Positions 1,037-14,229 of a stretch of 64,000 bases of DNA are shown piece after piece. Source of the DNA: Escherichia coli (lineage in GTDB: Bacteria > Pseudomonadota > Gammaproteobacteria > Enterobacterales > Enterobacteriaceae). Under the pieces are notes generated by a model. It saw only the letters and a list, made by a program, of their open reading frames with translations, did not search any database and was not told the DNA's origin. Each line of letters opens with the position of its first letter. Within the stretch, counting starts at the first letter, position 1. The stretch lies in the NCBI RefSeq assembly GCF_041248615.1, contig NZ_CP158426.1; one strand, given 5' to 3'. Made by a program: the position numbers and the translations under genes.

Positions 1037-1116
1037 GACTTCCCTCTCCCCCAAATAAAAAGGCCTGCGATTACCAGCAGGCCTGTTATTAGCTCAGTGA
1101 TGTAGATGGTCATCTT

Positions 1117-1389
1117 TTAACTCCATATACCGCCAATACCCGTTTCATCGCGGCACTCCTTAAAAATTAGGTTCGTGCTCATCTTTCCTTCCCGTTCTTC
1201 CTTGGTAGCAAACCGGTAATACACCGTTCGCCAGACCTTACCTTCGATAACCAGAAGACCTGCCCGTGCCATTTTAGCCGCGGCCTGATTTATGCTGGTT
1301 ACTGTTGCGCCTGTTAGCGCGGCAACGTCCGGCGCACAGAAGCTATTATGCGTCCCCAGGTAATGAATAATTGCCTCTTTGCCCGTCAT
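1117..1389 (-). CDS. ren: Ren-like protein with divergent C-terminus
   Basis: 90 aa MTGKEAIIHYLGTHNSFCAPDVAALTGATVTSINQAAAKMARAG... matches lambda Ren over most of its length, then diverges at the C-terminus. Start overlaps the P stop (ATGA). Confidence 0.7.
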   Translation of the reverse strand: MTGKEAIIHYLGTHNSFCAPDVAALTGATVTSINQAAAKMARAGLLVIEGKVWRTVYYRFATKEEREGKMSTNLIFKECRDETGIGGIWS

Positions 1390-2984: not shown

Positions 2985-3060
2985 ATGACTCCTGTGGATT
3001 GATCCAGTCTTTCTACATCAGGCCTCAAAACTGTTGCAGCAGTCTTGAGGCTTTTCTTTT
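2985..3060 (+). ncRNA. Candidate oop-like antisense RNA ending in an intrinsic terminator
   Basis: On the + strand a 7 bp stem gcctcaa/ttgaggc (3022-3028 / 3045-3051) is followed by ttttctttt. It overlaps the last codons of the cII-like gene on the opposite strand, as lambda oop does. The 5' end is not determinable from sequence. Confidence 0.35.
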
Positions 3061-3296
3061 GTCAGCACCATGGCTACTTTCTTTGCTAGCTTTGCTAATT
3101 CCTCGTCTTCAACACCCCACTCCAGCACAGCCAGAAGCATGGCCATCTTTGGGATAAAGCTGTCTTTCCATCGCGAAATTTGCGATTCATTAATCCCTAA
3201 TGCATCAGCAACCTTTCGCTGACCACGTACAGCAATTCGATTCAGGATGTTGCTTGTGATTGCATTCGCTTTCTTGCGAGTACTTGTAAGTTGCAT
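3018..3296 (-). CDS. CII-like lysogeny activator (P22 C1-type)
   Basis: ORF track 3018..3383 trimmed to ATG at 3296 (MQLTSTRKKANAITSNILNRIAVRGQRKVADALGINESQISRW...). HTH protein similar to CII/C1 family as remembered. Sits between cro and O. Confidence 0.7.
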   Translation of the reverse strand: MQLTSTRKKANAITSNILNRIAVRGQRKVADALGINESQISRWKDSFIPKMAMLLAVLEWGVEDEELAKLAKKVAMVLTKEKPQDCCNSFEA

Positions 3297-3353
3297 ATGT
3301 AAGTATTTCCTTAACAAATAAGAAGTTATACGCACCAACTGATGCGCGTTGTA

Positions 3354-3398
3354 TTCCCGCATTTCGGCGGGAATAAGGACCATGACTGTTAAAGAGCA
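3354..3398 (-). promoter_or_regulatory. nutR (boxA-like and boxB hairpin) on the rightward transcript
   Basis: Reverse complement contains tgctctttaac (boxA-like) and the hairpin cccgccgaaatgcggg, the same boxB sequence as nutL. Located between cro and the cII-like gene, as in lambda. Confidence 0.5.
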
Positions 3399-3404
3399 AT
3401 TTGC

Positions 3405-3590
3405 TTATGCCGCTTTGCGATAAGCACTTTCTTGATACTTCAGGGCGCCAGCTGTAACGACTTCCAGTCGATAGGCGTCTTTCTCTGGGATGACTTCCTT
3501 CCACTGAGAAACTGCTGCATCGCTAATGCCTAACGCTTTAGCTACCGCACGCTGGGTTCCGAAGTGGTCGATAACATCTTTCTTGTACAT
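3405..3590 (-). CDS. cro: Cro repressor (P22-type)
   Basis: 61 aa MYKKDVIDHFGTQRAVAKALGISDAAVSQWKE...; matches P22 Cro as remembered. Divergent from the repressor gene. Confidence 0.8.
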   Translation of the reverse strand: MYKKDVIDHFGTQRAVAKALGISDAAVSQWKEVIPEKDAYRLEVVTAGALKYQESAYRKAA

Positions 3591-3670
3591 AGACTCGCTC
3601 CGAAATTAAAGAACACTTAAATTATCTATCAAAGGAATCTTAAGTCAAGTTTATTTAAGATGTCTTAACT
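3591..3670. promoter_or_regulatory. OR operator / PR-PRM divergent promoter region
   Basis: 80 bp AT-rich spacer between divergent cro and c2, with repeated atttaag / cttaa(a/g)t half-site-like motifs (atttaagatgtcttaact, aatcttaagtc) resembling P22-type operators. Confidence 0.5.
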
Positions 3671-4321
3671 ATGAATACACAACTGATGGGTGAGCGTATT
3701 CGCGCTCGCAGAAAAGAACTTAAGATTAGGCAGGCTGCCCTTGGCAAGATGGTTGGCGTGTCTAATGTTGCTATTTCCCAATGGGAGCGTTCTGAAACTG
3801 AGCCCAATGGCGAAAACCTATTGGCTTTAGCCAAGGCTTTACAGTGCTCCCCTGATTACTTGTTGAAAGGAGAAGATAGTCTTTCAAACATTGCCTATCA
3901 CAGCAGGCATGATCCAAGAGGTTCGTATCCTCTAATTAGTTGGGTAAGCGCAGGATGTTGGATGGAAGCTGTAGAGCCATATCATAAGCGTGCAATAGAT
4001 AACTGGTACGATACAACCGTAGATTGTTCAGAAGATTCGTTTTGGCTGGACGTAAAGGGTGATTCGATGACGGCTCCAGCCGGTCTTAGCATCCCGGAAG
4101 GGATGATAATACTAGTCGATCCTGAAGTAGAACCTCGTAATGGGAAGCTGGTAGTGGCAAAGCTCGAAGGAGAAAACGAGGCAACTTTCAAGAAGTTAGT
4201 TATTGATGCTGGCAGAAGGTTTCTAAAACCACTTAACCCACAATATCCGATGATTGAGATCAACGGGAACTGCAAAATCATCGGTGTAGTTGTCGATGCA
4301 AAAATAGCAAACCTTCCATAA
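3671..4321 (+). CDS. c2: Prophage repressor (P22 C2-like)
   Basis: 216 aa MNTQLMGERIRARRKELKIRQAALGKMVGVSNVAISQWE... with an N-terminal HTH and a C-terminal LexA-like self-cleavage domain; matches P22 C2 from memory. Confidence 0.9.
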   Translation: MNTQLMGERIRARRKELKIRQAALGKMVGVSNVAISQWERSETEPNGENLLALAKALQCSPDYLLKGEDSLSNIAYHSRHDPRGSYPLISWVSAGCWMEAVEPYHKRAIDNWYDTTVDCSEDSFWLDVKGDSMTAPAGLSIPEGMIILVDPEVEPRNGKLVVAKLEGENEATFKKLVIDAGRRFLKPLNPQYPMIEINGNCKIIGVVVDAKIANLP

Positions 4322-4343
4322 GGGGCATTCGCCCCTTTTTTTC
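4322..4343 (+). terminator. Intrinsic terminator after c2
   Basis: Hairpin ggggcattcgcccc followed by an 8-T tract immediately after the c2 stop. Confidence 0.5.
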
Positions 4344-4440
4344 TTTCCTTTAAAAATCAAAGCAAAACTTAAACTTCGCAATAAAATTTAAGTTTTCTTC
4401 AAAAACACTCTTGACCAATAATTAAAGAAATCTTAAATTT
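4344..4440. promoter_or_regulatory. OL / PL operator-promoter region (candidate)
   Basis: AT-rich region with aatttaagttttctt and aaatcttaaatttaag motifs similar to those in the OR region, upstream of nutL and N. Confidence 0.4.
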
Positions 4441-4485
4441 AAGTCATCAGCAGGACGCTGGTAGCCAAACGGAACAGATTGGCAG

Positions 4486-4526
4486 GCTCTTTAACATTGA
4501 TGGGATTGTCCCGCCGAAATGCGGGA
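4486..4526 (+). promoter_or_regulatory. nutL (boxA gctctttaac plus boxB hairpin)
   Basis: gctctttaac at 4486-4495 and hairpin tcccgc-cgaaat-gcggga at 4509-4526, upstream of N. The boxB is identical to the nutR copy. Confidence 0.5.
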
Positions 4527-4633
4527 ACCAAAGAGTAGTTGGCTTTGGGGTGACGTGAAGTGCAGCTGCACGACGGCAACCGGAAGATAAGCACCCGGCG
4601 CGTCACCGCCAAAGTCAATCATCGGAGGTCAAC

Positions 4634-4933
4634 ATGGCAGTAGTCATTACATATCTGGCTGACGATAACGCCAGAAATCGCCGCAGAGCACGCAGACAGG
4701 CTCAACGTGAACAGGCAATGCAAGAACAGCGACTGGCGCGAAAGATTGCGCTAAAGCTCTCTGGTTGCGTCAGAGCAGATAAAGCAGCATCACTCGGAAG
4801 CCTTCGCTGCAAGAAGGCAGAAGAGGTCGAGAGTAAACGGAATCGTATTTACTACCGCAAGCCACGCAGTGAAATGGGTGTGACTTGTGTTGGTCGCCAG
4901 AAAATGAAATTAGGCAGTAAGCCACTTATTTGA
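4634..4933 (+). CDS. N: N-type transcription antiterminator (phage-21-like)
   Basis: 99 aa with an arginine-rich N-terminal motif (NARNRRRARRQAQREQ) and C-terminus GRQKMKLGSKPLI resembling lambda/phage 21 N. Located downstream of nutL. Confidence 0.75.
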   Translation: MAVVITYLADDNARNRRRARRQAQREQAMQEQRLARKIALKLSGCVRADKAASLGSLRCKKAEEVESKRNRIYYRKPRSEMGVTCVGRQKMKLGSKPLI

Positions 4934-4944
4934 GAGGAATTAAT

Positions 4945-5568
4945 ATGTCATCAATCCGCTTAACTACGAGAATGAAAGAGGAAATCGCTCGTAACGCTTT
5001 AATTAAGTCTGGGGTTTTCACTGAACTTGAAGAAGTAACAAAGTTAAAGAACCAGCTTGCACTTGACGCCAGAGTTATTGCGTTTGGCGGTAAAAAGAAA
5101 ACTGAGGAAGTGGATCAGTTATCATCCAAGTTGGTAGCTATAAGTGAAGAACTTGAAAAGATGGGATGTTCATTTTACTCATACGATGTTCGTTCTACTT
5201 CAATTTATCTGACTGTATCTGGCAGAAGGGTTGGATGGCTTTCATATGGGAAAGACGGCAACGGCGAAGATATATTGCTCCCTGCTCCGAACAAAGATAA
5301 ATGCATGTTTAGCGCAGAACACGAAATAACAAAAAGGTTTGATGAAATCTGCGCATTGCAACAAAAACTTGAAGCCAAGAAAAAGGATATCGAATCAAAT
5401 GTATGGGCTGCTTTGAACTCAGTCACAACAGTTAAGCGACTTATTGAAGTTTGGCCTGAAAGCAAAGAGTTGCTACCAAAAGAAGCAGATAAAGCAAGTA
5501 CAGCACTTCCTGCTTTACGGGTAGAAGATTTGAATAAGATGATTGGACTTCCTTCCGAGGCCGCATAG
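4945..5568 (+). CDS. Hypothetical protein (207 aa), no family recognised
   Basis: ORF track 4930..5568 trimmed to ATG 4945 preceded by gaggaa. Occupies the ral/sieB position between N and cIII. Confidence 0.5.
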   Translation: MSSIRLTTRMKEEIARNALIKSGVFTELEEVTKLKNQLALDARVIAFGGKKKTEEVDQLSSKLVAISEELEKMGCSFYSYDVRSTSIYLTVSGRRVGWLSYGKDGNGEDILLPAPNKDKCMFSAEHEITKRFDEICALQQKLEAKKKDIESNVWAALNSVTTVKRLIEVWPESKELLPKEADKASTALPALRVEDLNKMIGLPSEAA

Positions 5569-5605
5569 TCGGCCTTTATTTTTGGCATAAACAACAGAGG
5601 TGAAT

Positions 5606-5740
5606 ATGAACGCAGTTGAATTTGCAAAATGGATGGCAGAGCAAGATATCACAGGAGCCGACGAAAAGGCTGTGTACTACATGGCTCTGCTATGGATTCA
5701 CAAAGCAAAAGAGGCTGCAAATGCTCTTGGAGGTGAGTGA
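5606..5740 (+). CDS. Hypothetical small protein (44 aa)
   Basis: ATG at 5606 preceded by agagg; the stop overlaps the next start (TGATG). Not in the ORF track because it is under 60 aa. Confidence 0.3.
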   Translation: MNAVEFAKWMAEQDITGADEKAVYYMALLWIHKAKEAANALGGE

Positions 5741-5925
5741 TGTGCGAGTTTTATGAAGCAGATATCAAACGCCCAGAAATGGCAAGTGATGCGACATTAC
5801 GTGATTACTTCGCAGCAAAGTTCATGCAGGGAGTTTGTGCAAATCCAGACAGGCTTTATGACAACGAACCACTTGCTAAAGAAGCTTATGCGATGGCAGA
5901 CGCAATGCTCAAAGCTCGCGAATAA
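5740..5925 (+). CDS. Hypothetical small protein (61 aa)
   Basis: ORF track 5737..5925, with ATG at 5740 translationally coupled to the upstream small ORF. Confidence 0.4.
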   Translation: MCEFYEADIKRPEMASDATLRDYFAAKFMQGVCANPDRLYDNEPLAKEAYAMADAMLKARE

Positions 5926-6059
5926 GCACTGTGTATTCATTCCAACGAGTGAATACACGGAGCAATGTCGCTCGTAACTAAACAGGAGCCGACTTGTTCT
6001 GATTATTTGAAATCTTCTTTGCCCTCCGATGTGAGGGCAATTTTTTTGATGGAGGATAT

Positions 6060-7025
6060 ATGAGTGAAGTAACAGATTTAGTTGTTATTGAAAAAGCAAA
6101 TGCAATGACTGTATTTCAGTCTGCCGACCAGATTGAAGAAATCCTTCAAAAGGTTGAACGTGAAGTTATGTCCTTTGTGCCTGATATCACAACGGCAAAG
6201 GGCAGAAAGGAGATCGCTTCTCTGGCGTATAAAGTTGCGCAGACGAAAACATATCTCGATGGTCTTGGCAAAGACCTTGTTGCTGAACTGAAGGAAATTC
6301 CAAAGCTAATTGATGCCAACCGCAAGACAGTGCGTGATCGCCTTGATGAGCTGAAAGCCAAGGCACGCCAGCCTCTTACTGATTATGAGGAAGAACAGGC
6401 GCGGATTAAAGCCGAAGAGGAAGCTAAGGCAGCAGCTGAAGCCCTCGCAAAGCAAATTGAGTCTGACCATGAAATAGCGATTTTGATGGATCGCGAATTT
6501 GACCGCAAAAGAGAAGAGGCAAGACTCAAAGTGGAGCAGGAAAAGCGAGAGCATGAAGAACTCTTAAAAAGAGAAGCTGAAGAGAAAGCCAGAGCAGAAG
6601 CCGAAGCAAAGGCAAAAGCCGAAATTGAAGCAGCAGCAAGGCGAGAAGCAGAAGCTAAGGCAGCAGCGGAACGTGCAGAGCGTGAACGCATTGAAGCCGA
6701 GCAACGAGCACAGCGCGAAGCAAAAGAGGCAGCAGAACGAGCTGAAAGAGAAAAGCAGGCAGCAATTGAAGCAGAACGCCGAAAAGCACAGGAGGAGGCT
6801 GAACGAATCCGTCGCGATGCTGAAGCAAAAGAGCAAGCCAGAATAGCAGAAGAAAAAAGAATCAAGGAAGAAGAGCGTAGAGCAAAGGATAAAGCTCACC
6901 GGAAAGAAGTAAATAACAAAATACTTGCTGACCTTATCAAGGTTGGCGCATCAGAAGATGTTGCTAAAAATATCATAACAGCCATCGTAAAAGGCGAAGT
7001 ATTCGCAACAAAAATAACCTACTAA
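6060..7025 (+). CDS. Coiled-coil protein (321 aa) with a long Ala/Glu/Lys/Arg-rich low-complexity core
   Basis: ORF track. N-terminal approx 100 aa are of ordinary composition, followed by an approx 170 aa AEAKA/EAERR-type repeat and a short C-terminal domain. Antisense ORFs in the track here are repeat artefacts. Confidence 0.55.
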   Translation: MSEVTDLVVIEKANAMTVFQSADQIEEILQKVEREVMSFVPDITTAKGRKEIASLAYKVAQTKTYLDGLGKDLVAELKEIPKLIDANRKTVRDRLDELKAKARQPLTDYEEEQARIKAEEEAKAAAEALAKQIESDHEIAILMDREFDRKREEARLKVEQEKREHEELLKREAEEKARAEAEAKAKAEIEAAARREAEAKAAAERAERERIEAEQRAQREAKEAAERAEREKQAAIEAERRKAQEEAERIRRDAEAKEQARIAEEKRIKEEERRAKDKAHRKEVNNKILADLIKVGASEDVAKNIITAIVKGEVFATKITY

Positions 7026-7049
7026 TAAAACCAACATAAGGAACCACCC

Positions 7050-7196
7050 ATGATTTACGCAATCGCGGGAGGCGCTCGCATGGGTGCCTTCCAACTAAAT
7101 GAATCTTTACTTGAACGAATCACCCGTAAATTACGTGACGGATGGAAACGCCTTATCGACATACTTAATCAGCCAGGAGTCCCCAAAAATGGATAA
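7050..7196 (+). CDS. cIII: CIII-like FtsH inhibitor
   Basis: 48 aa MIYAIAGGARMGAFQLNESLLERITRKLRDGWKRLIDILNQPGVPKNG; the central ESLLERITRKLRDGWKRLIDILNQPGVPKNG matches lambda CIII as remembered. RBS aaggaacc. Not in the ORF track. Confidence 0.7.
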   Translation: MIYAIAGGARMGAFQLNESLLERITRKLRDGWKRLIDILNQPGVPKNG

Positions 7197-7302
7197 AACA
7201 CTTATGGCTATCCAGACTAAATTCACTATCGCCGCTTTTATTGGCGATGAAAAGATGTTTCGTGAGGCCGTCGAAGCCTACAGAAAATGGAGGTCAAAAT
7301 GA
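7189..7302 (+). CDS. kil: Kil-like host-killing / division inhibitor protein
   Basis: 37 aa MDKTLMAIQTKFTIAAFIGDEKMFREAVEAYRKW..., resembling lambda Kil from memory. Overlaps the cIII end. The longer track ORF 7099..7302 overlaps cIII in another frame. Confidence 0.6.
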   Translation: MDKTLMAIQTKFTIAAFIGDEKMFREAVEAYRKWRSK

Positions 7303-7487
7303 TTCCGGTAGAACTGGCGAAAACTCCAGAGTTAAGTCGATTAAAAAGAGAATATCACATTGCTGAGGCTCGTTACTGGCGTAAAGCGGGAGATAAATCA
7401 AAGAAACAACTTTGCTTATGGCAGGCACAAAGAGAGCGCATGAATGAGCGTGAGTTTCTTTCCTCCCCATCCGAATTACCATTCTGA
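7299..7487 (+). CDS. Hypothetical small protein (62 aa)
   Basis: ATG at 7299 overlaps the kil stop; ORF track 7287..7487. Confidence 0.4.
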   Translation: MIPVELAKTPELSRLKREYHIAEARYWRKAGDKSKKQLCLWQAQRERMNEREFLSSPSELPF

Positions 7488-7495
7488 GGCAAATT

Positions 7496-8176
7496 ATGGG
7501 AACTGCGACATTAATACTCGGTGAATCTGGCACCGGAAAATCAACCAGCATGAGAAATATCAATCCAGAGGAAGCAATACTTATAAAACCAATAGGCAAG
7601 CCGCTTCCATTTAAATCAAAAGACTGGCTGGCATGGGATGCCAGAGCAAAAAAAGGAACCGTAGTTACCACTGACAAATGGGACGTAATAGTTGCCGTAA
7701 TTAAGCGTGCTCACGAATACGGGAAAAGAATCGTTATTGTTGATGACTTCCAGTATGTGATGAGCAATGAGTTTATGCGCCGCTCAGAAGAAAAATCGTT
7801 TGATAAATTCACTGAGATAGGCCGCCACGCATGGGAGGTGATTAAGGCTGCACAGGATGCACCTGATGACCTGAGAGTCTATTTTCTTGCGCACACCGAA
7901 GAAACCCCTATGGGGCGTGTGAAAATGAAGACTATCGGCAAAATGCTGGACGAGAAAATCACTGTCGAAGGCATGTTTACTATAGTTCTTCGCACCCTTA
8001 CCCGCGATGACCAGTTCTTTTTCACCACGAAAAACAACGGTGCAGACACTGTTAAATCCCCAATGGGAATGTTTGATTCTAATGAGATTGATAACGATCT
8101 CTCTTTCGTCGATGCCACTGTTTGTGATTACTACGGCATCAATAATGTTCATCAAATTAAGGAAAACGCCGCATGA
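7496..8176 (+). CDS. Sak4-type RecA-fold ATPase (putative phage single-strand annealing / recombination protein)
   Basis: 226 aa with Walker A GESGTGKST near the N-terminus and a Walker B-like IVIVDDF. Its size and its pairing with an SSB-like gene fit the Sak4 family. Confidence 0.65.
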   Translation: MGTATLILGESGTGKSTSMRNINPEEAILIKPIGKPLPFKSKDWLAWDARAKKGTVVTTDKWDVIVAVIKRAHEYGKRIVIVDDFQYVMSNEFMRRSEEKSFDKFTEIGRHAWEVIKAAQDAPDDLRVYFLAHTEETPMGRVKMKTIGKMLDEKITVEGMFTIVLRTLTRDDQFFFTTKNNGADTVKSPMGMFDSNEIDNDLSFVDATVCDYYGINNVHQIKENAA

Positions 8177-8760
8177 GCAACGTGATTTTTACTTATAACG
8201 AAGAAGCAGCACTGACCGCAGGGCAAGGTGGTTTTATTAACGAAACTGGTGCTCATATCATTACCATTACTGAAGCAGAACTAAAGCAATCAGAAAAAGG
8301 AGCCAAATTTATTGAGTTTTCTGGCGAATCTGACGACGGACGTAAAATCCAATATCTTAGCGTCTGTGTTCAGAAAAATGACGGAACGGAAAACAAATTT
8401 GGCGCAAATGTCGTTCACGCCATGATGGGGTGTGCCGGGATTGGACAATTAACGCAACATATGGTTTCCGCCAGTAAATTTGTTGCTCCTGAGTTTCATG
8501 GAAAGAAAATCGGGTTAGTGCTCCAGAAAGTATTAACCACAAACAAAAAGACTGGCGCAGACAGCTACCAGATGGAAATACGCATCCCGTTTATTGCACA
8601 AACAGGTCAAACCCTTAAAGAAAAGGCGGAAGGCAAGCAACCAGAAACTATCGCCAACATGGTTGCCAGCCTCAAAGATAAAGACAATCGCTCTAAAAAC
8701 GTAAGCCAGAATCATGCAGATGATTATGGTTACAGCCAGAACGATTACCCTCCATTCTAG
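8173..8760 (+). CDS. Phage SSB-like protein (DUF2815-type partner of Sak4)
   Basis: 195 aa; start overlaps the Sak4 stop. C-terminal acidic/aromatic tail ...DDYGYSQNDYPPF resembles the SSB C-terminal tail. Confidence 0.5.
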   Translation: MSNVIFTYNEEAALTAGQGGFINETGAHIITITEAELKQSEKGAKFIEFSGESDDGRKIQYLSVCVQKNDGTENKFGANVVHAMMGCAGIGQLTQHMVSASKFVAPEFHGKKIGLVLQKVLTTNKKTGADSYQMEIRIPFIAQTGQTLKEKAEGKQPETIANMVASLKDKDNRSKNVSQNHADDYGYSQNDYPPF

Positions 8761-8785
8761 ATTATTGCAAAATAAGGATTCCATT

Positions 8786-9082
8786 ATGCCAGCGCCTCTG
8801 TATGGTGCGGATGACCCGCGCAATTGCTCCGGTAGCTCCAAGGCGGAGGTGCTGGAAAATATCAAAAACAATTTCGACGCGTTTCTTGCTCTGACACCAG
8901 AAACAAAAGCAGAACGGATGTACCGACGCGATATACAACTCGCGCTAAAACAGGAGAAGGACCGAACAAACGAAACAGCAATGAGACCGTTGCGAAAAGC
9001 GACAATAGACAAATTCCCTGAATATATCGACCCGCGCCTGCGTAATTACCGCTCACGCTATGGCGCTATCAGTAATGACTGA
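8786..9082 (+). CDS. Hypothetical protein (98 aa)
   Basis: ORF track 8714..9082 trimmed to ATG 8786 with RBS aaggatt. Confidence 0.45.
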
Positions 9083-9092
9083 GGAATTTACA

Positions 9093-9260
9093 ATGAGAGG
9101 ACTTGCATACAATCCCGGCATTCTTCCGGCAGAAATGATTATTCGCCAACGCGTAAAGCCAATGCCATCGAGAGAGGAATTGCTTAAGAGAAATTCTTTT
9201 CCGTCAGTAAATCAAAACAAATATCTGAATGCGATGTGGCGCAAAGGAGGCAAGCAGTGA
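9093..9260 (+). CDS. Hypothetical small protein (55 aa)
   Basis: ATG 9093 preceded by gagga; within track ORF 9060..9260. Confidence 0.35.
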
Positions 9261-9556
9261 GTGTATATCTTATTGATAAACGTCGACGTGGGCAACAAAT
9301 ACCACCTGTAGGAATTCCGAATCACACATGGTTTTGCGTACTTGATATCGATGGTATGGATGCGTTGGTTGACACTCGTCATTACTGCGATACCGCAACA
9401 GCTACTCCGGCGAAAGCAAAGAAAATGGCTGCTCTGATAGAAAACTGGACTCCACCTGATGGTTGGTGCAATGGGAATGATCGAGATTGGCATGAAAAAA
9501 TGAAGGGCTATATCTGCGATTTCTTACGTAAATGCAACGGCTTCAGGGTGATGTGA
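9257..9556 (+). CDS. Hypothetical protein (99 aa; GTG start assumed)
   Basis: Track ORF 9236..9556. aggagg at 9245-9250 favours GTG 9257 as the start, overlapping the upstream stop. Start is uncertain. Confidence 0.4.
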
Positions 9557-9557
9557 C

Positions 9558-10175
9558 ATGAACAAGATTGACTATCAGGCACTGCGTGAAGCGGCAGAGC
9601 AGGCAATGCATGACGACTGGGGATTTGACGCAGACCTTTTCCATGAATTGGTAACACCATCGATTGTGCTGGAACTGCTGGATGAACGGGAAAGAAACCA
9701 GCAATACATCAAACGCCGCGACCAGGAGAACGAGGATATTGCGCTAACGGTAGGGAGGCTTCGCGTTGAGCTGGAAGGCAAAGACAGCAAAATAGCCAAT
9801 CTTACCGCCGAACGCGATGCTCTTCGTGAAGGTGAGATGGGCGACGCTAGGCATAGCAACACACGGGCCGCAGCTGATATCTACTTCCAACTGGTCGAGG
9901 AGTGCGAAATTCCTGCTGGCGGATCTCTGGTCGAGTACGTTGACGATATGCGCGAGAAGCTGGAAGCTGCAGAGAAGCGCATTGCAGAGTTAGAAAGTGG
10001 TTCTCAGGCACAAAAGTTAGTTGAAGCAATCATTGTTGCGATAGAAAACGAACAGGAAAGGCTTTTTGATGAAGATTACCTAATGGATTCGAAAGAATGC
10101 ATTGACGTAATTCGTGAAGAAGTAAAGCGATGGAATGATTCCCGTGCCGCTGGCATTCGCATCAAAGGAGAGTGA
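9558..10175 (+). CDS. Hypothetical coiled-coil protein (205 aa), possibly Ea22-like
   Basis: ORF track. Acidic, coiled-coil-rich. Lies in the ea/b2-equivalent region between the recombination module and xis. Family assignment is by recollection only. Confidence 0.4.
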   Translation: MNKIDYQALREAAEQAMHDDWGFDADLFHELVTPSIVLELLDERERNQQYIKRRDQENEDIALTVGRLRVELEGKDSKIANLTAERDALREGEMGDARHSNTRAAADIYFQLVEECEIPAGGSLVEYVDDMREKLEAAEKRIAELESGSQAQKLVEAIIVAIENEQERLFDEDYLMDSKECIDVIREEVKRWNDSRAAGIRIKGE

Positions 10176-10176
10176 T

Positions 10177-10719
10177 ATGACCACTATAACCGATAAGAAA
10201 CAGTATCCCAGCGAGCAATATCTTAATGAGCTGATCACCAACATAGAGTTTGCTGCAAGGGCACCAGTTGAAGTCGTGAGAGCGATGGCAGCAGAGCTAC
10301 AGAAGCGGCGCGAAGCTGATAGTGCAGAACCTGCAAGTAATCATGAAGAGTTGCCGCTTGATTATCTCCAAGGTCAAAAAGATGGTCTTGAATGGGCTGC
10401 GCAGCTTGCAGAAGCAAATCACCCACAAACTGGCGACTGGCTTTACGATGACCCGCTGGAGCTGGCTAAAGCTATCAGAAAAGGTCCTGACATGCCCGAA
10501 TTCGATGGACCAACTCCGGTAACTCCGGATGGTTGGATAAGCTGTAGTGAGCGAATGCCCGCTCAAGATGATTGGATTTTAATTTATTCAAAGCACGGCG
10601 AGTATATGGCAGGACAGGTACAAGGGGAATACGTGGAGTTGAGCGACGGCACTTTATCGTGGTTAGGGAACGCCTTGTACTGGATGCCTCTACCGGAACC
10701 GCCGCAGGAGGTGAAGTGA
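10177..10719 (+). CDS. Hypothetical protein (180 aa), C-terminal DUF551-like domain
   Basis: Track ORF 10135..10719 trimmed to ATG 10177 with RBS aaaggagag. C-terminal W/Y-rich segment (GWISCSERMP...DDWILIY...WMPLPEPP) resembles DUF551. Confidence 0.45.
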   Translation: MTTITDKKQYPSEQYLNELITNIEFAARAPVEVVRAMAAELQKRREADSAEPASNHEELPLDYLQGQKDGLEWAAQLAEANHPQTGDWLYDDPLELAKAIRKGPDMPEFDGPTPVTPDGWISCSERMPAQDDWILIYSKHGEYMAGQVQGEYVELSDGTLSWLGNALYWMPLPEPPQEVK

Positions 10720-10997
10720 TGGACTCCTTCGCGAAATATACGATTATTGACTGGATAGCCTTCCTTCAGGTTTTACTCATCTGGTTTTATATGGCTTACA
10801 GGAGTGGACAGTGGATTGTCAGTATAGCCTGTAGCAAGGGATGGCGTTGGTGGAACCGAAAGAATAAAAAAGCACTGGCATTGGATTCGTTTTACGAAGC
10901 ATTCAATCTTAACAGCCTTCAGCCTGGTTCTGTCGTTGTAGTCACCACTCAAAGCGGCATGACGATACAAATTCACAAGCCAAAGGATGAAAAATGA
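10719..10997 (+). CDS. Hypothetical small membrane protein (92 aa)
   Basis: ATG 10719 overlaps the upstream stop, RBS ggagg. One hydrophobic segment (IIDWIAFLQVLLIWFYMAY). Confidence 0.4.
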   Translation: MDSFAKYTIIDWIAFLQVLLIWFYMAYRSGQWIVSIACSKGWRWWNRKNKKALALDSFYEAFNLNSLQPGSVVVVTTQSGMTIQIHKPKDEK

Positions 10998-11083
10998 TGT
11001 GGCCTATATGCGTTAATTGCGGACGGATGTGCCTATCTGGATGGTGCCGAAAGTGCGACAAATGCACGAAGAAAAGACAATAA
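10994..11083 (+). CDS. Cys-rich micro-ORF (29 aa, CxxC-x3-C-x4-CxxCxxC)
   Basis: MMWPICVNCGRMCLSGWCRKCDKCTKKRQ; start overlaps the upstream stop. Very short, so it may not be translated. Confidence 0.25.
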   Translation: MMWPICVNCGRMCLSGWCRKCDKCTKKRQ

Positions 11084-11142
11084 CAATCCTCGCACTCGCG
11101 GGGATTTCTTTTATCTGAACTCGCTACGGCGGGTTTTGTTTT

Positions 11143-11454
11143 ATGGAGATGATTATGGCCTGTTCAACATTCACCACTTTAACGTTACAGAAATACCAGC
11201 CAGACCCTGAAGATTTATACTCACTGTGTGGCGGAAATCATGGTAAAGCCGCCATGATCGAATGTAAGGACAAAATCCACATATGCCTTAATTGCGTTGA
11301 TGTCCTCGTTGATATCAAAAATGAAAGAGAAGATAAAAAGCGTAGCGAGGCTATTCGCGCCTTAGATTCATGGATGCGAGATGGGTATAGTGCTGCGCAA
11401 ATTTATGACTTAGCCATTTCAAAAGGCGAAATACCAGGAGTGCGCATCGAATAA
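11143..11454 (+). CDS. Hypothetical protein (103 aa)
   Basis: ORF track; followed by an intrinsic terminator. Confidence 0.4.
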   Translation: MEMIMACSTFTTLTLQKYQPDPEDLYSLCGGNHGKAAMIECKDKIHICLNCVDVLVDIKNEREDKKRSEAIRALDSWMRDGYSAAQIYDLAISKGEIPGVRIE

Positions 11455-11496
11455 GACGTAACCAATATTCGAATTGAAGAACTGAAAGAACACCAA

Positions 11497-11518
11497 GCCG
11501 CCTGATGGCGGTTTTTTC
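11497..11518 (+). terminator. Intrinsic terminator upstream of xis
   Basis: Stem gccgcc/ggcgg with loop tgat, followed by tttttt. Confidence 0.5.
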
Positions 11519-11544
11519 TTGCGTGTAATTGCGGAGACTTTGCG

Positions 11545-11763
11545 ATGTACTTGACACTTCAGGAGTGGAATGCACGCCAGCGACGCCCAAGAAGCCTTGA
11601 AACAGTTCGTCGATGGGTGCGCGAATGCAGGATATTCCCTCCTCCGGTTAAGGATGGAAGAGAATATCTGTTCCACGAATCAGCGGTAAAGGTTGACTTA
11701 AATCGACCAGTAACAGGTAGCCTTTTGAAGAGGATCAGAAATGGGAAGAAGGCGAAGTCATGA
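11545..11763 (+). CDS. xis: Excisionase Xis
   Basis: 72 aa MYLTLQEWNARQRRPRSLETVRRWVRECRIFPPPVKDGREYLFHESAVKVDL...; matches lambda Xis from memory. Overlaps the int start. Confidence 0.9.
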   Translation: MYLTLQEWNARQRRPRSLETVRRWVRECRIFPPPVKDGREYLFHESAVKVDLNRPVTGSLLKRIRNGKKAKS

Positions 11764-12811
11764 GCGCCGGGATTTACCCCCTAACCTTTATATAAGAAAC
11801 AATGGATATTACTGCTACAGGGACCCAAGGACGGGTAAAGAGTTTGGATTAGGCAGAGACAGGCGAATCGCAATCACTGAAGCCATACAGGCCAACATTG
11901 AGTTATTTTCAGGACACAAACACAAGCCTCTGACAGCGAGAATCAACAGTGATAATTCCGTTACGCTACATTCATGGCTTGATCGCTACGAAAAAATCCT
12001 GGCCAGCAGAGGAATCAAGCAGAAGACACTCATAAATTACATGAGCAAAATTAAAGCAATAAGGAGGGGGCTGCCTGATGCTCCACTTGAAGACATCACC
12101 ACAAAAGAAATTGCGGCAATGCTCAATGGATACATAGACGAGGGCAAGGCGGCGTCAGCCAAGTTAATCAGATCAACACTGAGCGATGCATTCCGAGAGG
12201 CAATAGCTGAAGGCCATATAACAACAAACCCTGTCGCTGCCACTCGCGCAGCAAAATCAGAGGTAAGGAGATCAAGACTTACGGCTGACGAATACCTGAA
12301 AATTTATCAAGCAGCAGAATCATCACCATGTTGGCTCAGACTTGCAATGGAACTGGCTGTTGTTACCGGGCAACGAGTTGGTGATTTATGCGAAATGAAG
12401 TGGTCTGATATCGTAGATGGATATCTTTATGTCGAGCAAAGCAAAACAGGCGTAAAAATTGCCATCCCAACAACATTGCATGTTGATGCTCTCGGGATAT
12501 CAATGAAGGAAACACTTGATAAATGCAAAGAGATTCTTGGCGGAGAAACCATAATTGCATCTACTCGTCGTGAACCGCTTTCATCCGGCACAGTATCAAG
12601 GTATTTTATGCGCGCACGAAAAGCATCAGGTCTTTCCTTCGAAGGGGATCCGCCTACCTTTCACGAGTTGCGCAGTTTGTCTGCAAGACTCTATGAGAAG
12701 CAGATAAGCGATAAGTTTGCTCAACATCTTCTCGGGCATAAGTCGGACACCATGGCATCACAGTATCGTGATGACAGAGGCAGGGAGTGGGACAAAATTG
12801 AAATCAAATAA
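11741..12811 (+). CDS. int: Tyrosine integrase Int (lambda-type)
   Basis: 356 aa MGRRRSHERRDLPPNLYIRNNGYYCYRDPRTGKEFGLGRD...; essentially lambda Int from memory. The adjacent P' arm and core follow. Confidence 0.95.
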   Translation: MGRRRSHERRDLPPNLYIRNNGYYCYRDPRTGKEFGLGRDRRIAITEAIQANIELFSGHKHKPLTARINSDNSVTLHSWLDRYEKILASRGIKQKTLINYMSKIKAIRRGLPDAPLEDITTKEIAAMLNGYIDEGKAASAKLIRSTLSDAFREAIAEGHITTNPVAATRAAKSEVRRSRLTADEYLKIYQAAESSPCWLRLAMELAVVTGQRVGDLCEMKWSDIVDGYLYVEQSKTGVKIAIPTTLHVDALGISMKETLDKCKEILGGETIIASTRREPLSSGTVSRYFMRARKASGLSFEGDPPTFHELRSLSARLYEKQISDKFAQHLLGHKSDTMASQYRDDRGREWDKIEIK

Positions 12812-12884
12812 TGATTTTATTTTGACTGATAGTGACCTGTTCGTTGCAACAAATTGATAAGCAATGCTTTTTTATAATGCCAAC

Positions 12885-12899
12885 TTAGTATAAAAAAGC
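12885..12899. other. att-lambda common core (attL junction: host B arm - core - phage P' arm)
   Basis: The + strand carries ttagtataaaaaagc, the reverse complement of the lambda core GCTTTTTTATACTAA. It is flanked on the phage side by the lambda P' arm (gttggcattataaaaaagcattgcttatcaatttgttgcaacgaacaggtcactatcagtcaaaataaaatcatta on the reverse strand) and on the host side by caggcttca, as in E. coli attB. Confidence 0.85.
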
Positions 12900-12945
12900 A
12901 GGCTTCAACGGATTCATTTTTCTATTTCATAGCCCGGAGCAACCT

Positions 12946-14229
12946 GTGAACACATTTTCAGTTTCCCGTCTGGCGCTGGCATTGGCTTTTGGCGTGACGC
13001 TGACCGCCTGTAGCTCAACACCGCCCGATCAACGTCCTTCTGATCAAACCGCGCCTGGTACCTCTTCTCGCCCGATTCTGTCGGCAAAAGAAGCGCAGAA
13101 TTTCGATGCTCAACACTATTTTGCATCCCTGACACCAGGTGCGGCAGCGTGGAATCCTTCCCCGATTACCCTGCCTGCACAACCTGACTTTGTTGTCGGC
13201 CCGGCGGGTACTCAAGGTGTAACGCATACCACGATTCAGGCGGCGGTAGATGCGGCAATTATCAAGCGTACCAACAAGCGCCAGTATATTGCCGTGATGC
13301 CTGGTGAGTATCAGGGAACGGTGTATGTCCCTGCCGCTCCGGGTGGAATTACTCTGTACGGTACAGGTGAAAAACCGATTGATGTGAAGATTGGGCTTTC
13401 CCTTGATGGGGGCATGAGCCCCGCCGACTGGCGTCACGACGTCAACCCGCGCGGCAAATATATGCCAGGTAAACCAGCGTGGTATATGTACGATAGCTGC
13501 CAGAGCAAACGCAGCGACAGTATCGGCGTTCTCTGCTCTGCGGTCTTCTGGTCACAAAACAATGGCCTGCAACTGCAAAACCTGACCATCGAAAACACGC
13601 TGGGCGATAGCGTAGATGCGGGTAACCATCCGGCGGTGGCACTGCGTACTGATGGCGACAAAGTGCAGATCAATAACGTCAACATTCTCGGTCGTCAGAA
13701 TACCTTCTTTGTCACCAACAGTGGTGTGCAAAACCGTCTGGAAACCAACCGTCAGCCGCGTACTCTGGTGACCAACAGTTACATTGAAGGGGATGTGGAT
13801 ATCGTTTCTGGTCGCGGCGCAGTGGTGTTCGATAACACCGAATTCCGCGTGGTGAACTCCCGTACCCAGCAAGAAGCGTATGTGTTTGCACCGGCTACGC
13901 TGTCCAACATTTACTACGGTTTCCTCGCCGTAAACAGCCGTTTCAATGCTTCCGGTGATGGCGTGGCGCAACTGGGCCGCTCGCTGGATGTTGATGCCAA
14001 TACCAACGGTCAGGTGGTGATCCGTGATAGTGCCATCAACGAAGGTTTTAACACAGCCAAACCGTGGGCTGATGCGGTGATCTCTAATCGTCCGTTTGCG
14101 GGTAACACCGGCAGCGTTGATGATAACGACGAAGTACAGCGCAATCTGAATGACACTAACTACAACCGCATGTGGGAATACAATAACCGCGGCGTGGGTA
14201 GCAAAGTGGTTGCAGAGGCGAAGAAGTAA
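12946..14229 (+). CDS. ybhC: Putative pectinesterase-family lipoprotein YbhC
   Basis: 427 aa, GTG start, lipoprotein signal (LTACSS). Gene adjacent to att-lambda in K-12 order. Confidence 0.85.
   Translation: MNTFSVSRLALALAFGVTLTACSSTPPDQRPSDQTAPGTSSRPILSAKEAQNFDAQHYFASLTPGAAAWNPSPITLPAQPDFVVGPAGTQGVTHTTIQAAVDAAIIKRTNKRQYIAVMPGEYQGTVYVPAAPGGITLYGTGEKPIDVKIGLSLDGGMSPADWRHDVNPRGKYMPGKPAWYMYDSCQSKRSDSIGVLCSAVFWSQNNGLQLQNLTIENTLGDSVDAGNHPAVALRTDGDKVQINNVNILGRQNTFFVTNSGVQNRLETNRQPRTLVTNSYIEGDVDIVSGRGAVVFDNTEFRVVNSRTQQEAYVFAPATLSNIYYGFLAVNSRFNASGDGVAQLGRSLDVDANTNGQVVIRDSAINEGFNTAKPWADAVISNRPFAGNTGSVDDNDEVQRNLNDTNYNRMWEYNNRGVGSKVVAEAKK

Follow-up and report, generated by a model that had tools for sequence, protein, structure and literature searches.

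The eight small open reading frames (ORFs) at 8786-11454 of the analysed stretch of Escherichia coli DNA (64,000 nucleotides (nt) of contig NZ_CP158426.1, assembly GCF_041248615.1; this whole stretch is called the window) very probably form an accessory segment, non-essential and distal to the promoter, of the early leftward (pL) operon of a lambdoid prophage, in which the genes are independently exchangeable cassettes and not one system. The interval as a whole is an ordinary, catalogued accessory region, with one gene of known function and five in named families. A modest, mildly new element was found in two of its genes, namely an unannotated micro-gene under selection (ORF7) and a protein resembling the ClpX zinc finger (ORF8), which is present here as a natural allele that has lost a zinc ligand.

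Composition and mosaic distribution of the interval

A preliminary description of this DNA had listed eight ORFs here, tightly packed and mostly translationally coupled, and both points held. All eight were recovered with the same limits on the plus strand, the successive gaps from ORF1 to ORF8 were 10, -4, 1, 1, -1, -4 and 59 nt (10 to -4 nt within ORF1-7) with 90 nt before xis, and 97% of the interval was coding, the non-coding part being 71 of 2,669 nt. Six of the eight ORFs passed the Pfam gathering score and seven matched a PHROG family; because comparative evidence was also obtained for the ORF of 29 amino acids (aa), the eight are more than what chance would give. None of the eight proteins scored above threshold in NCBIfam.

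Of 5,426 complete E. coli genomes, 3,688 carried some part of the region 8700-11500 and a single one matched 80% or more of it, a coverage that no phage record reached. Apart from the window itself, just one of these genomes had all eight genes in this exact combination. When the gene orders of 70 related loci were compared, Abc2, DUF7739, Ea22, DUF551 and ORF8 were variably present, and the same genes occur in the plaque-forming phages HK620, HK106, mEp213, Sf6, CUS-3 and Kapi1. Neighbourhoods with DUF551, Ead_Ea22, DUF2737 and Abc2/DUF2856 genes also appear among the accessory-region genes tabulated in the supplement to the screen by Silas et al.

The chromosome of E. coli isolate NRZ14408 was 99.2% identical to the window over 8700-11500. 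In the RefSeq annotation of that genome by the Prokaryotic Genome Annotation Pipeline (PGAP), seven of the eight ORFs were called and the 29 aa ORF was left out. The coordinates of ORF3 were as here, while ORF4 was started at Met17 (189 aa) and ORF8 at the third ATG. The 205 aa start of ORF4 is preferable to that of PGAP because the alignment to both family profiles, Pfam and PHROG, begins at residues 1-3. For ORF8, the start at 11155 (99 aa) appears more likely than that at 11143; it has a GGAG 5 nt upstream, homologues begin there and PGAP picks the same start.

Features of the interval (first eight rows) and of the surrounding prophage, in positions of the window
Feature	Position	Strand	Assignment or remark
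ORF1, 98 aa	8786-9082	+	Abc2
ORF2, 55 aa, isoelectric point 11	9093-9260	+	DUF2737
ORF3, 99 aa, GTG start overlapping the ORF2 stop	9257-9556	+	DUF7739
ORF4, 205 aa, isoelectric point 4.5	9558-10175	+	Ead/Ea22-like
ORF5, 180 aa	10177-10719	+	EaA-type with DUF551
ORF6, 92 aa	10719-10997	+	DUF4752, one predicted transmembrane segment
ORF7, 28 or 29 aa (ATGATG)	10994-11083	+	Cys-rich micro-gene
ORF8, 103 aa from ATG 11143; 99 aa from 11155	11143/11155-11454	+	like the ClpX-type zinc-binding domain
LexA-family (cI-like) repressor	3671-4321	+	upstream context
nutL-like boxA GCTCTTTAACA	4486-4496	+	read from the sequence by eye
boxB-like hairpin CCCGC-CGAAAT-GCGGG	4510-4525	+	read from the sequence by eye
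N-like protein, 99 aa, arginine-rich N-terminus NARNRRRARRQAQ	4634-4933	+	read by eye; hypothetical protein in PGAP
Nmad5 ('nucleotide modification associated domain 5') protein	4945-5568	+	241 bits; just 3' of the N-like gene
Sak4-type recombinase/ATPase	7496-8176	+	AAA_24 match; PGAP annotation
HK620-type single-stranded DNA-binding protein (SSB)	8173-8760	+	PGAP annotation
Terminator-like hairpin and T-run	11085-11106	+	consensus scan; directly 3' of the ORF7 stop
Terminator-like hairpin and T-run, tandem second	11117-11136	+	consensus scan
Terminator-like hairpin and T-run, between ORF8 and xis	11495-11514	+	consensus scan
xis, lambda-type excisionase	11545-11763	+	Pfam Exc, 139 bits
int, lambda-type	11741-12811	+	Phage_integrase and lambda Arm-DNA-binding domain
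lambda att core GCTTTTTTATACTAA	12885-12899	-	exact match; 0 matches expected by chance

Gene families of the interval

ORF1 is Abc2, the anti-RecBCD protein, and is predicted to bind RecBCD/RecC. It scored 121.7 bits against PF11043 (cutoff 25; residues 1-98 on profile 1-97), matched phrog_656 'abc2 anti-RecBCD' at 5.1e-45 and the Abc2 of PDB entries 8b1t/8b1u at E = 3.7e-32 (residues 1-98 on 1-97), was 61.2% identical to P22 Abc2 and carried the PGAP name 'phage anti-RecBCD protein'. The P22 Abc2 structure and mechanism are known from its complex with RecBCD (8B1T), and its Pro68 enters the active site of the host PpiB (PMC9836394); this proline is kept in ORF1 within 'AMRP'. By homology to the structurally solved P22 protein, ORF1 would redirect RecBCD. 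The order sak4-ssb-abc2 of HK620 is regarded as a single recombination module, and no stimulation of Sak4 recombineering by HK620 Abc2 was observed (PMC5928155). Since ORF1 is Abc2 and the gene order in the window is that of HK620, the recombination module ends at 9082 and not at 8760. Two earlier statements are therefore to be corrected, as none of the eight ORFs had been given an assignable function, and ORF1 had been placed between the recombination module and xis when it belongs inside the module, the boundary having been drawn one gene early. The eight had also been regarded as uncharacterised alike, a view that does not fit ORFs 2, 3 and 6, which are members of DUF2737, DUF7739 and DUF4752, or the ORF8 family with its ClpX-type C4 zinc-binding domain (ZBD).

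ORF2 scored 109.2 bits on PF10930 (DUF2737; cutoff 25), was annotated by PGAP and corresponds to hkaI of HK620. Full-length copies were found in 221 phage records and Abc2 in 232. The abc2 and DUF2737 genes were adjacent in the Stx2a phage LC616034 (one record), and for HK620 and P22-derived phages this was judged from separate records. ORF2 probably belongs functionally with the recombination/RecBCD module. The DUF2737 core (ORF2 residues 23-51) was also seen in ~435 records of ~42 kb lytic Salmonella/Escherichia siphoviruses (e.g. NC_073173 and NC_042084). These records were mostly without an Abc2 match (few organism groups were common to both searches), so that the role of ORF2 cannot be strictly Abc2-dependent. 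ORF3 scored 69.4 bits on PF24881 (DUF7739; cutoff 27) and matched phrog_1239 at 2.6e-54, and its presence varied among related loci. ORF6 scored 123.3 bits on PF15944 (DUF4752; cutoff 27), a family found in 57 phage records, and showed the single hydrophobic stretch noted earlier (residues 8-26, Kyte-Doolittle 19-residue mean of 1.78), so that it is predicted to be a single-pass membrane protein. Our literature searches returned no functional study of DUF4752, DUF2737 or DUF7739.

The Ea22-like nature of ORF4 and the DUF551-like nature of ORF5, both proposed in the preliminary description, were borne out by profile matches. ORF4 scored 75.1 bits on PF13935 (Ead_Ea22; cutoff 27) over residues 3-146, which are the N-terminal segment and the coiled coil, and matched phrog_250 at 8.9e-52. 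Ea22 of lambda and Shiga toxin (Stx) phages is a conserved oligomerising (tetrameric) scaffold that favours lysogeny and whose acidic C-terminal domains are interchangeable (PMC10834534), and Ea22 together with the exo-xis region is known for early pL genes, pro-lysogenic phenotypes and modular C-terminal domains (PMC10834534, PMC8614690). The PDB sequence search with ORF4 gave no match at E<=1 besides weak ones to YbaB. The lambda Ea22 C-terminal domain, solved by nuclear magnetic resonance, is in the PDB (PMC10834534), and the C-terminal ~55 residues of ORF4, unlike those of lambda Ea22, had no significant PDB sequence match; this difference agrees with the published variability of Ea22 C-termini. 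ORF4 would thus be an Ea22-type oligomeric coiled-coil scaffold with a swapped C-terminal domain and, by analogy with Ea22 of lambda and Stx phages, would bias the decision toward lysogeny.

ORF5 scored 43.8 bits on PF04448 (DUF551; cutoff 22) over residues 119-177. Its homologues, of which at least 8,000 were found, go by the names 'DUF551 domain-containing' or 'Eaa protein', and some are fused to the Ead_Ea22 coiled coil. The AlphaFold2 (AF2) model of ORF5 was poor overall (predicted local distance difference test (pLDDT) score of 47.7), and the DUF551 part (~70) was a 5-strand beta domain for which Foldseek returned only Hfq/Sm, Tudor and SH3-like barrels at non-significant E of 0.05-0.1. 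In view of the poor model and the non-significant barrels, a fold assignment was not accepted and is kept as a lead only; the DUF551 part may be a small, portable beta-barrel that probably serves as a binding module, the structural support being weak. As had been noted earlier, Ea22-type and DUF551-type proteins are still without established biochemical function (PMC10834534). Chimeric proteins were also observed, in which the Ead/Ea22 coiled coil is joined to DUF551 (P0174 and P0211) or an EaA-type N-terminus to the last 74 residues of ORF8 (P0084, 257 aa), and these represent domain-level shuffling among accessory genes.

ORF7 was found by unconstrained tblastn in ~19 lambdoid/P22-like phage records at 90-100% identity and, at 64-76% aa identity, in four lytic groups represented by Deseoctovirus C1, Skatevirus KFS-SE2, ST1UNAM and the 154 kb Citrobacter phage Tr1. 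C1, KFS-SE2 and ST1UNAM are related siphoviruses in which the same genes flank the micro-ORF. In all four lytic groups the frame is intact over 24-25 codons and its ATG abuts the stop of the upstream gene. The conserved core, MWPICxxCGRMCxxxWCxKCD, has a CxxC-x8-CxxC spacing with a central Cys, and these five Cys were kept in all five copies from the unconstrained search; in 16 variants retrieved with a pattern fixing the same Cys, their conservation is by construction. The zinc-ribbon-like spacing read earlier from the six Cys of ORF7 thus stands, with the amendment that just five are conserved and the sixth is present only in lambdoid copies. Between the groups, the proportion of synonymous differences (pS) was 0.6-1.3 (saturated), that of nonsynonymous differences (pN) 0.03-0.18 and pN/pS 0.06-0.17, all computed on protein-similarity matches, which biases pN downward. 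Despite this bias, the intact frames in independent lineages argue that the ORF7 peptide is translated and selected, and the strong purifying selection on its sequence argues that the peptide itself is the functional product. By its motif, ORF7 may be a minimal zinc ribbon and is predicted to bind zinc.

A ribosome-binding site, AAGGA, lies 6-9 nt before the ORF7 start, and ORF7 is translationally coupled to ORF6. A degenerate DNA pattern detected ORF7 in 70 IMG/VR viral contigs, and DUF4752 precedes it in the lambdoid ones with recognisable neighbours. The order DUF4752 then micro-ORF was found in only ~19 of 57 phage records, and since only about one third of DUF4752 genes carry the micro-ORF, ORF7 is a separate cassette. 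In lambdoid and siphovirus contexts alike, no further gene stands between ORF7 and a terminator-like hairpin; the first of the two tandem hairpins (11085-11106) follows ORF7 in at least 44 of ~58 lambdoid downstream sequences tallied, and the siphoviruses have a different hairpin. ORF7 was present in 182 of the 5,426 complete E. coli genomes, and no coding sequence was annotated over it in 12 of the 12 rows listed. The peptide has a GenBank entry (HK106_030, 'hypothetical protein') and no Pfam, PHROG or NCBIfam family. Its nearest look-alikes in sequence, the zinc ribbon of RNA polymerase III RPC2 CDKCGLMGYSGWCTTC and the structural-zinc loop of alcohol dehydrogenase, were non-significant. The 90%-identity cluster holding the ORF7 peptide (P0001) also contains unrelated proteins of 473-480 aa (the representative has 480 aa) that look outer-membrane-like by eye, which is a clustering artefact.

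The sequences of the ORF8 family identify it as a homologue of the N-terminal C4 ZBD of ClpX, with a long helix after it and, at the C-terminus, a portable module. ORF8 matched phrog_3680 at 1.4e-66, and the window allele gave no Pfam match at E<=0.1. The commonest allele (P0010) bears the UniRef name 'ClpX-type ZB domain-containing protein', and the PDB sequence search (E<=10) with ORF8 returned the ClpX ZBD first, weakly (E = 0.64), and otherwise only a RING protein. Only 26 relatives came out of an exhaustive HMMER search through 1.84 billion representatives. Among 15 aligned relatives (down to 29% identity), Cys25, Cys44 and Cys47 were invariant and Cys22 was kept in 14, the window copy being the exception; the family spacing, CxxC-x18-CxxC, is that of ClpX. 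When the family alignment was compared by hhalign with ClpX residues 1-60, the match (14-54) reached 97.1% over 40 columns with both CxxC pairs aligned; the ClpX query equals the 2ds7 fragment save for one residue (2ds7 has Met at Cys43). In the AF2 model of ORF8 (pLDDT 78), a small zinc-finger-like unit leads into a helix of 30 residues, and a short helix lies at the C-terminus.

Around the first zinc ligand, the window ORF8 has LYSLC and the others have LCSLC. The Tyr allele was found in 2 of 20 ORF8 copies in the fetched loci (window and NRZ14408), and the other 18 keep Cys. The first zinc ligand is thus lost here, and the window copy may be impaired. Intact ORF8 would most plausibly be a decoy or partner for ligands docking at the N-domain of ClpX. 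The literature searches turned up no paper about ClpX-ZBD homologues in phages. The possibility that ORF8 is a homologue of lambda Ea8.5, its positional equivalent beside xis, was rejected, as no match to the solved Ea8.5 homologues was obtained in the PDB (E<=10).

The C-terminal ~45 residues of ORF8 are the portable module and also end proteins of 180-216 aa in lytic siphoviruses. These proteins (P0091-P0093 and those of loci L003 1421-1999, L004 1394-1999 and L006 1349-1999) begin with MKLI(D/E)LLVQELPK.GGWP, end with …IYD-AI-GKIPGVKLE and are without a Pfam family. A functional link between ORF7 and this module was suggested by C1, KFS-SE2 and ST1UNAM, in which the micro-ORF directly follows the module-bearing protein. 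The link was rejected, since the diverged carriers P0091-P0093 have only ~28-30 nt up to the following gene and no micro-ORF, and most lambdoid micro-ORF loci are without ORF8.

Prophage setting and rival explanations

Sak4, SSB, the eight ORFs, Xis, Int, the att core, the cI-like repressor, an N-like arginine-rich-motif protein with boxA and a boxB-like hairpin, CIII and Kil are all co-oriented, CIII and Kil being also encoded upstream of the interval on the same strand. The att core lies 74 nt beyond the int stop and ybhC adjoins it, which marks the prophage-chromosome junction. The early genes are of P22/HK620 type, the integration module is that of lambda and the prophage lies at att-lambda. 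By resemblance to lambda and P22 N-nut, the region 4486-4933 is a putative N/nutL antitermination apparatus of the pL operon. A consensus scan of 6000-13000 found one sigma-70-like site against 10.4+/-3.3 expected. After induction or infection, transcription of all eight genes would come from pL, the N-like antiterminator would carry it past the three terminator-like hairpins to xis and int, and the products would act separately as host-modulating accessory factors. A non-coding RNA in or near the interval was considered and rejected, as Rfam gave no match at E<=1 in 3000-13500.

Other observations concern the neighbouring genes. The Nmad5 protein is an unusual cargo for an early-left operon position. 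A 321 aa low-complexity protein rich in Glu, Ala, Lys and Arg is encoded at 6060-7025 (+), where the local AT skew reaches 0.63; it is without a Pfam match, and PGAP labels it 'cell envelope biogenesis protein TolA', a name that probably reflects nothing more than its composition. In the NRZ14408 prophage, the annotation of ren shows a frameshift (locus L001 1411-1690, equal to window ~1110-1389, minus strand), and the window has a 90 aa ORF there (1117-1389).

The tight packing, translational coupling and single strand of the eight genes could also be explained if they formed one coherent system, such as an island for defence or anti-defence, or a module of the toxin-antitoxin kind, and the interval lies at a position where lambdoid phages often bear defence and counter-defence cargo, as in the accessory regions of Silas et al. 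We consider this very improbable. Phage early operons are normally tightly packed, ORF1 has a known partner of its own in RecBCD, and the independent assortment of the genes across phages and genomes largely refutes the idea; membership in a defence system was moreover rejected, as none of the eight proteins matched PADLOC-DB at E<=0.1. Hardly credible at all is that the 55 aa and 29 aa ORFs are chance frames in spacers. Such a reading would suit the absence of the 29 aa ORF from the PGAP annotation of the nearest genome and of the 12 E. coli rows, as well as its lack of a family in Pfam, PHROG and NCBIfam. It is opposed by the 109 bits of ORF2 on PF10930 and its annotation by PGAP, and by the copies of ORF7 in C1, KFS-SE2, ST1UNAM and Tr1, in which the frame is intact, the start context is shared, a stop lies close by and 64-76% aa identity is kept at saturated synonymous sites, as well as by the AAGGA preceding ORF7. 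Decay was given somewhat more weight and is still improbable: the genes would be the cargo of a defective prophage, intact by recency and without current function in this strain. The Tyr of ORF8 where every other homologue examined has Cys and the frameshifted ren of the near-identical NRZ14408 prophage would agree with it, and against it stand the eight intact reading frames, the retention of the same genes in the six plaque-forming phages named above and the presence of immunity, replication, recombination and integration genes in the window.

A bolder proposal, in which both ORF7 and the ORF8 family are new kinds of phage host-modulating factor, is taken as unlikely when its two parts are judged jointly, if less so than decay. 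ORF7 may be a mobile zinc-ribbon microprotein of lambdoid and unrelated lytic phages, aimed at a conserved host machine and perhaps always the last translationally coupled gene before the terminator. The ORF8 family may mimic the N-terminal domain of ClpX and draw adaptors or substrates (e.g. replication initiator or repressor fragments) away from ClpXP, by which induction or lysogeny may be tuned. The preferred reading, a segment of separately acting cassettes served by pL, has to be weighed against several findings that speak against it. The commonest ORF8 allele reached 15.7 bits on zf-C4_ClpX (PF06689) against a threshold of 27 (E = 0.014), and Foldseek with the ORF8 model returned treble-clef fingers only, none of them significant, of which the ClpX ZBD 2ds5 was the best-covered target (target-normalised TM-score of 0.69, 34% identity). 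The decoy role of ORF8 is suggested by domain homology, the translation of ORF7 and ORF2 by their conservation, and the N/nut assignment by inspection by eye. The pN bias of the ORF7 comparison belongs here too, and the literature searched gave no functional test of ORFs 2-7 in any phage.

The interval overall adds nothing new, being another shuffled lambdoid/P22-like accessory region. RefSeq annotation systematically overlooks the conserved micro-gene, which is present in 182 complete E. coli genomes and in lytic Salmonella, Escherichia and Citrobacter phages and would be an easy small-protein target. A free-standing ClpX zinc-finger homologue beside xis leads to a hypothesis that is cheap to test, namely that the prophage interferes with substrate selection by ClpXP, and the Cys-to-Tyr allele of the window could serve as a built-in control.

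Comparison with known phage proteins and regions

Like P22 Abc2, ORF1 aligns over its full length (~61% identity) with Pro68 retained, and as in HK620 the recombinase and SSB genes come immediately before it; unlike P22 Abc2, which is partnered with Erf/Abc1, it is partnered with Sak4 and a DUF669-type SSB. In Ea22_V2 the DUF551 is fused to the coiled coil, whereas here it lies in the next gene, 1 nt downstream. ORF7 resembles lambda Orf73 (a TraR-like C4 protein) and the Ea8.5 zinc finger as a very small Cys-rich early-operon product of the same neighbourhood, from which zinc-binding proteins that modulate the host are known. It differs from them in having only 24-29 aa, as a bare CxxC-x8-CxxC ribbon without flanking helices, and no homology to TraR, Orf73 or Ea8.5 was detectable. 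The ORF8 family conserves, like the ClpX ZBD (PDB 2DS5/2DS7), the helix that follows the zinc finger. Unlike ClpX, ORF8 is a free-standing phage protein of ~100 aa without an AAA+ module, with an extra C-terminal module common to siphovirus proteins and, in the window copy, Tyr for the first Cys.

The preliminary description had regarded the interval as equivalent to the lambda exo-xis or P22 ea side, and position, orientation and gene types all agree with this. Like the lambda exo-xis and P22 ea regions (HK620 hkaE-hkaJ, Sf6 genes 19-25), it lies between the recombination genes and xis, pL-distal and in the same orientation, is dense in small genes with an Ead/Ea22 member and a DUF551 (EaA-type) protein, and is non-essential, mosaic and early-expressed. 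Unlike in lambda, no member of the lambda conserved block (orf60a, orf63, orf61 and orf73) was among the families that Pfam gave for the eight ORFs, no sequence search having been made for them. A further difference from lambda exo-xis is that a gene set of P22/HK620 type is joined here to int, xis and att of lambda type.

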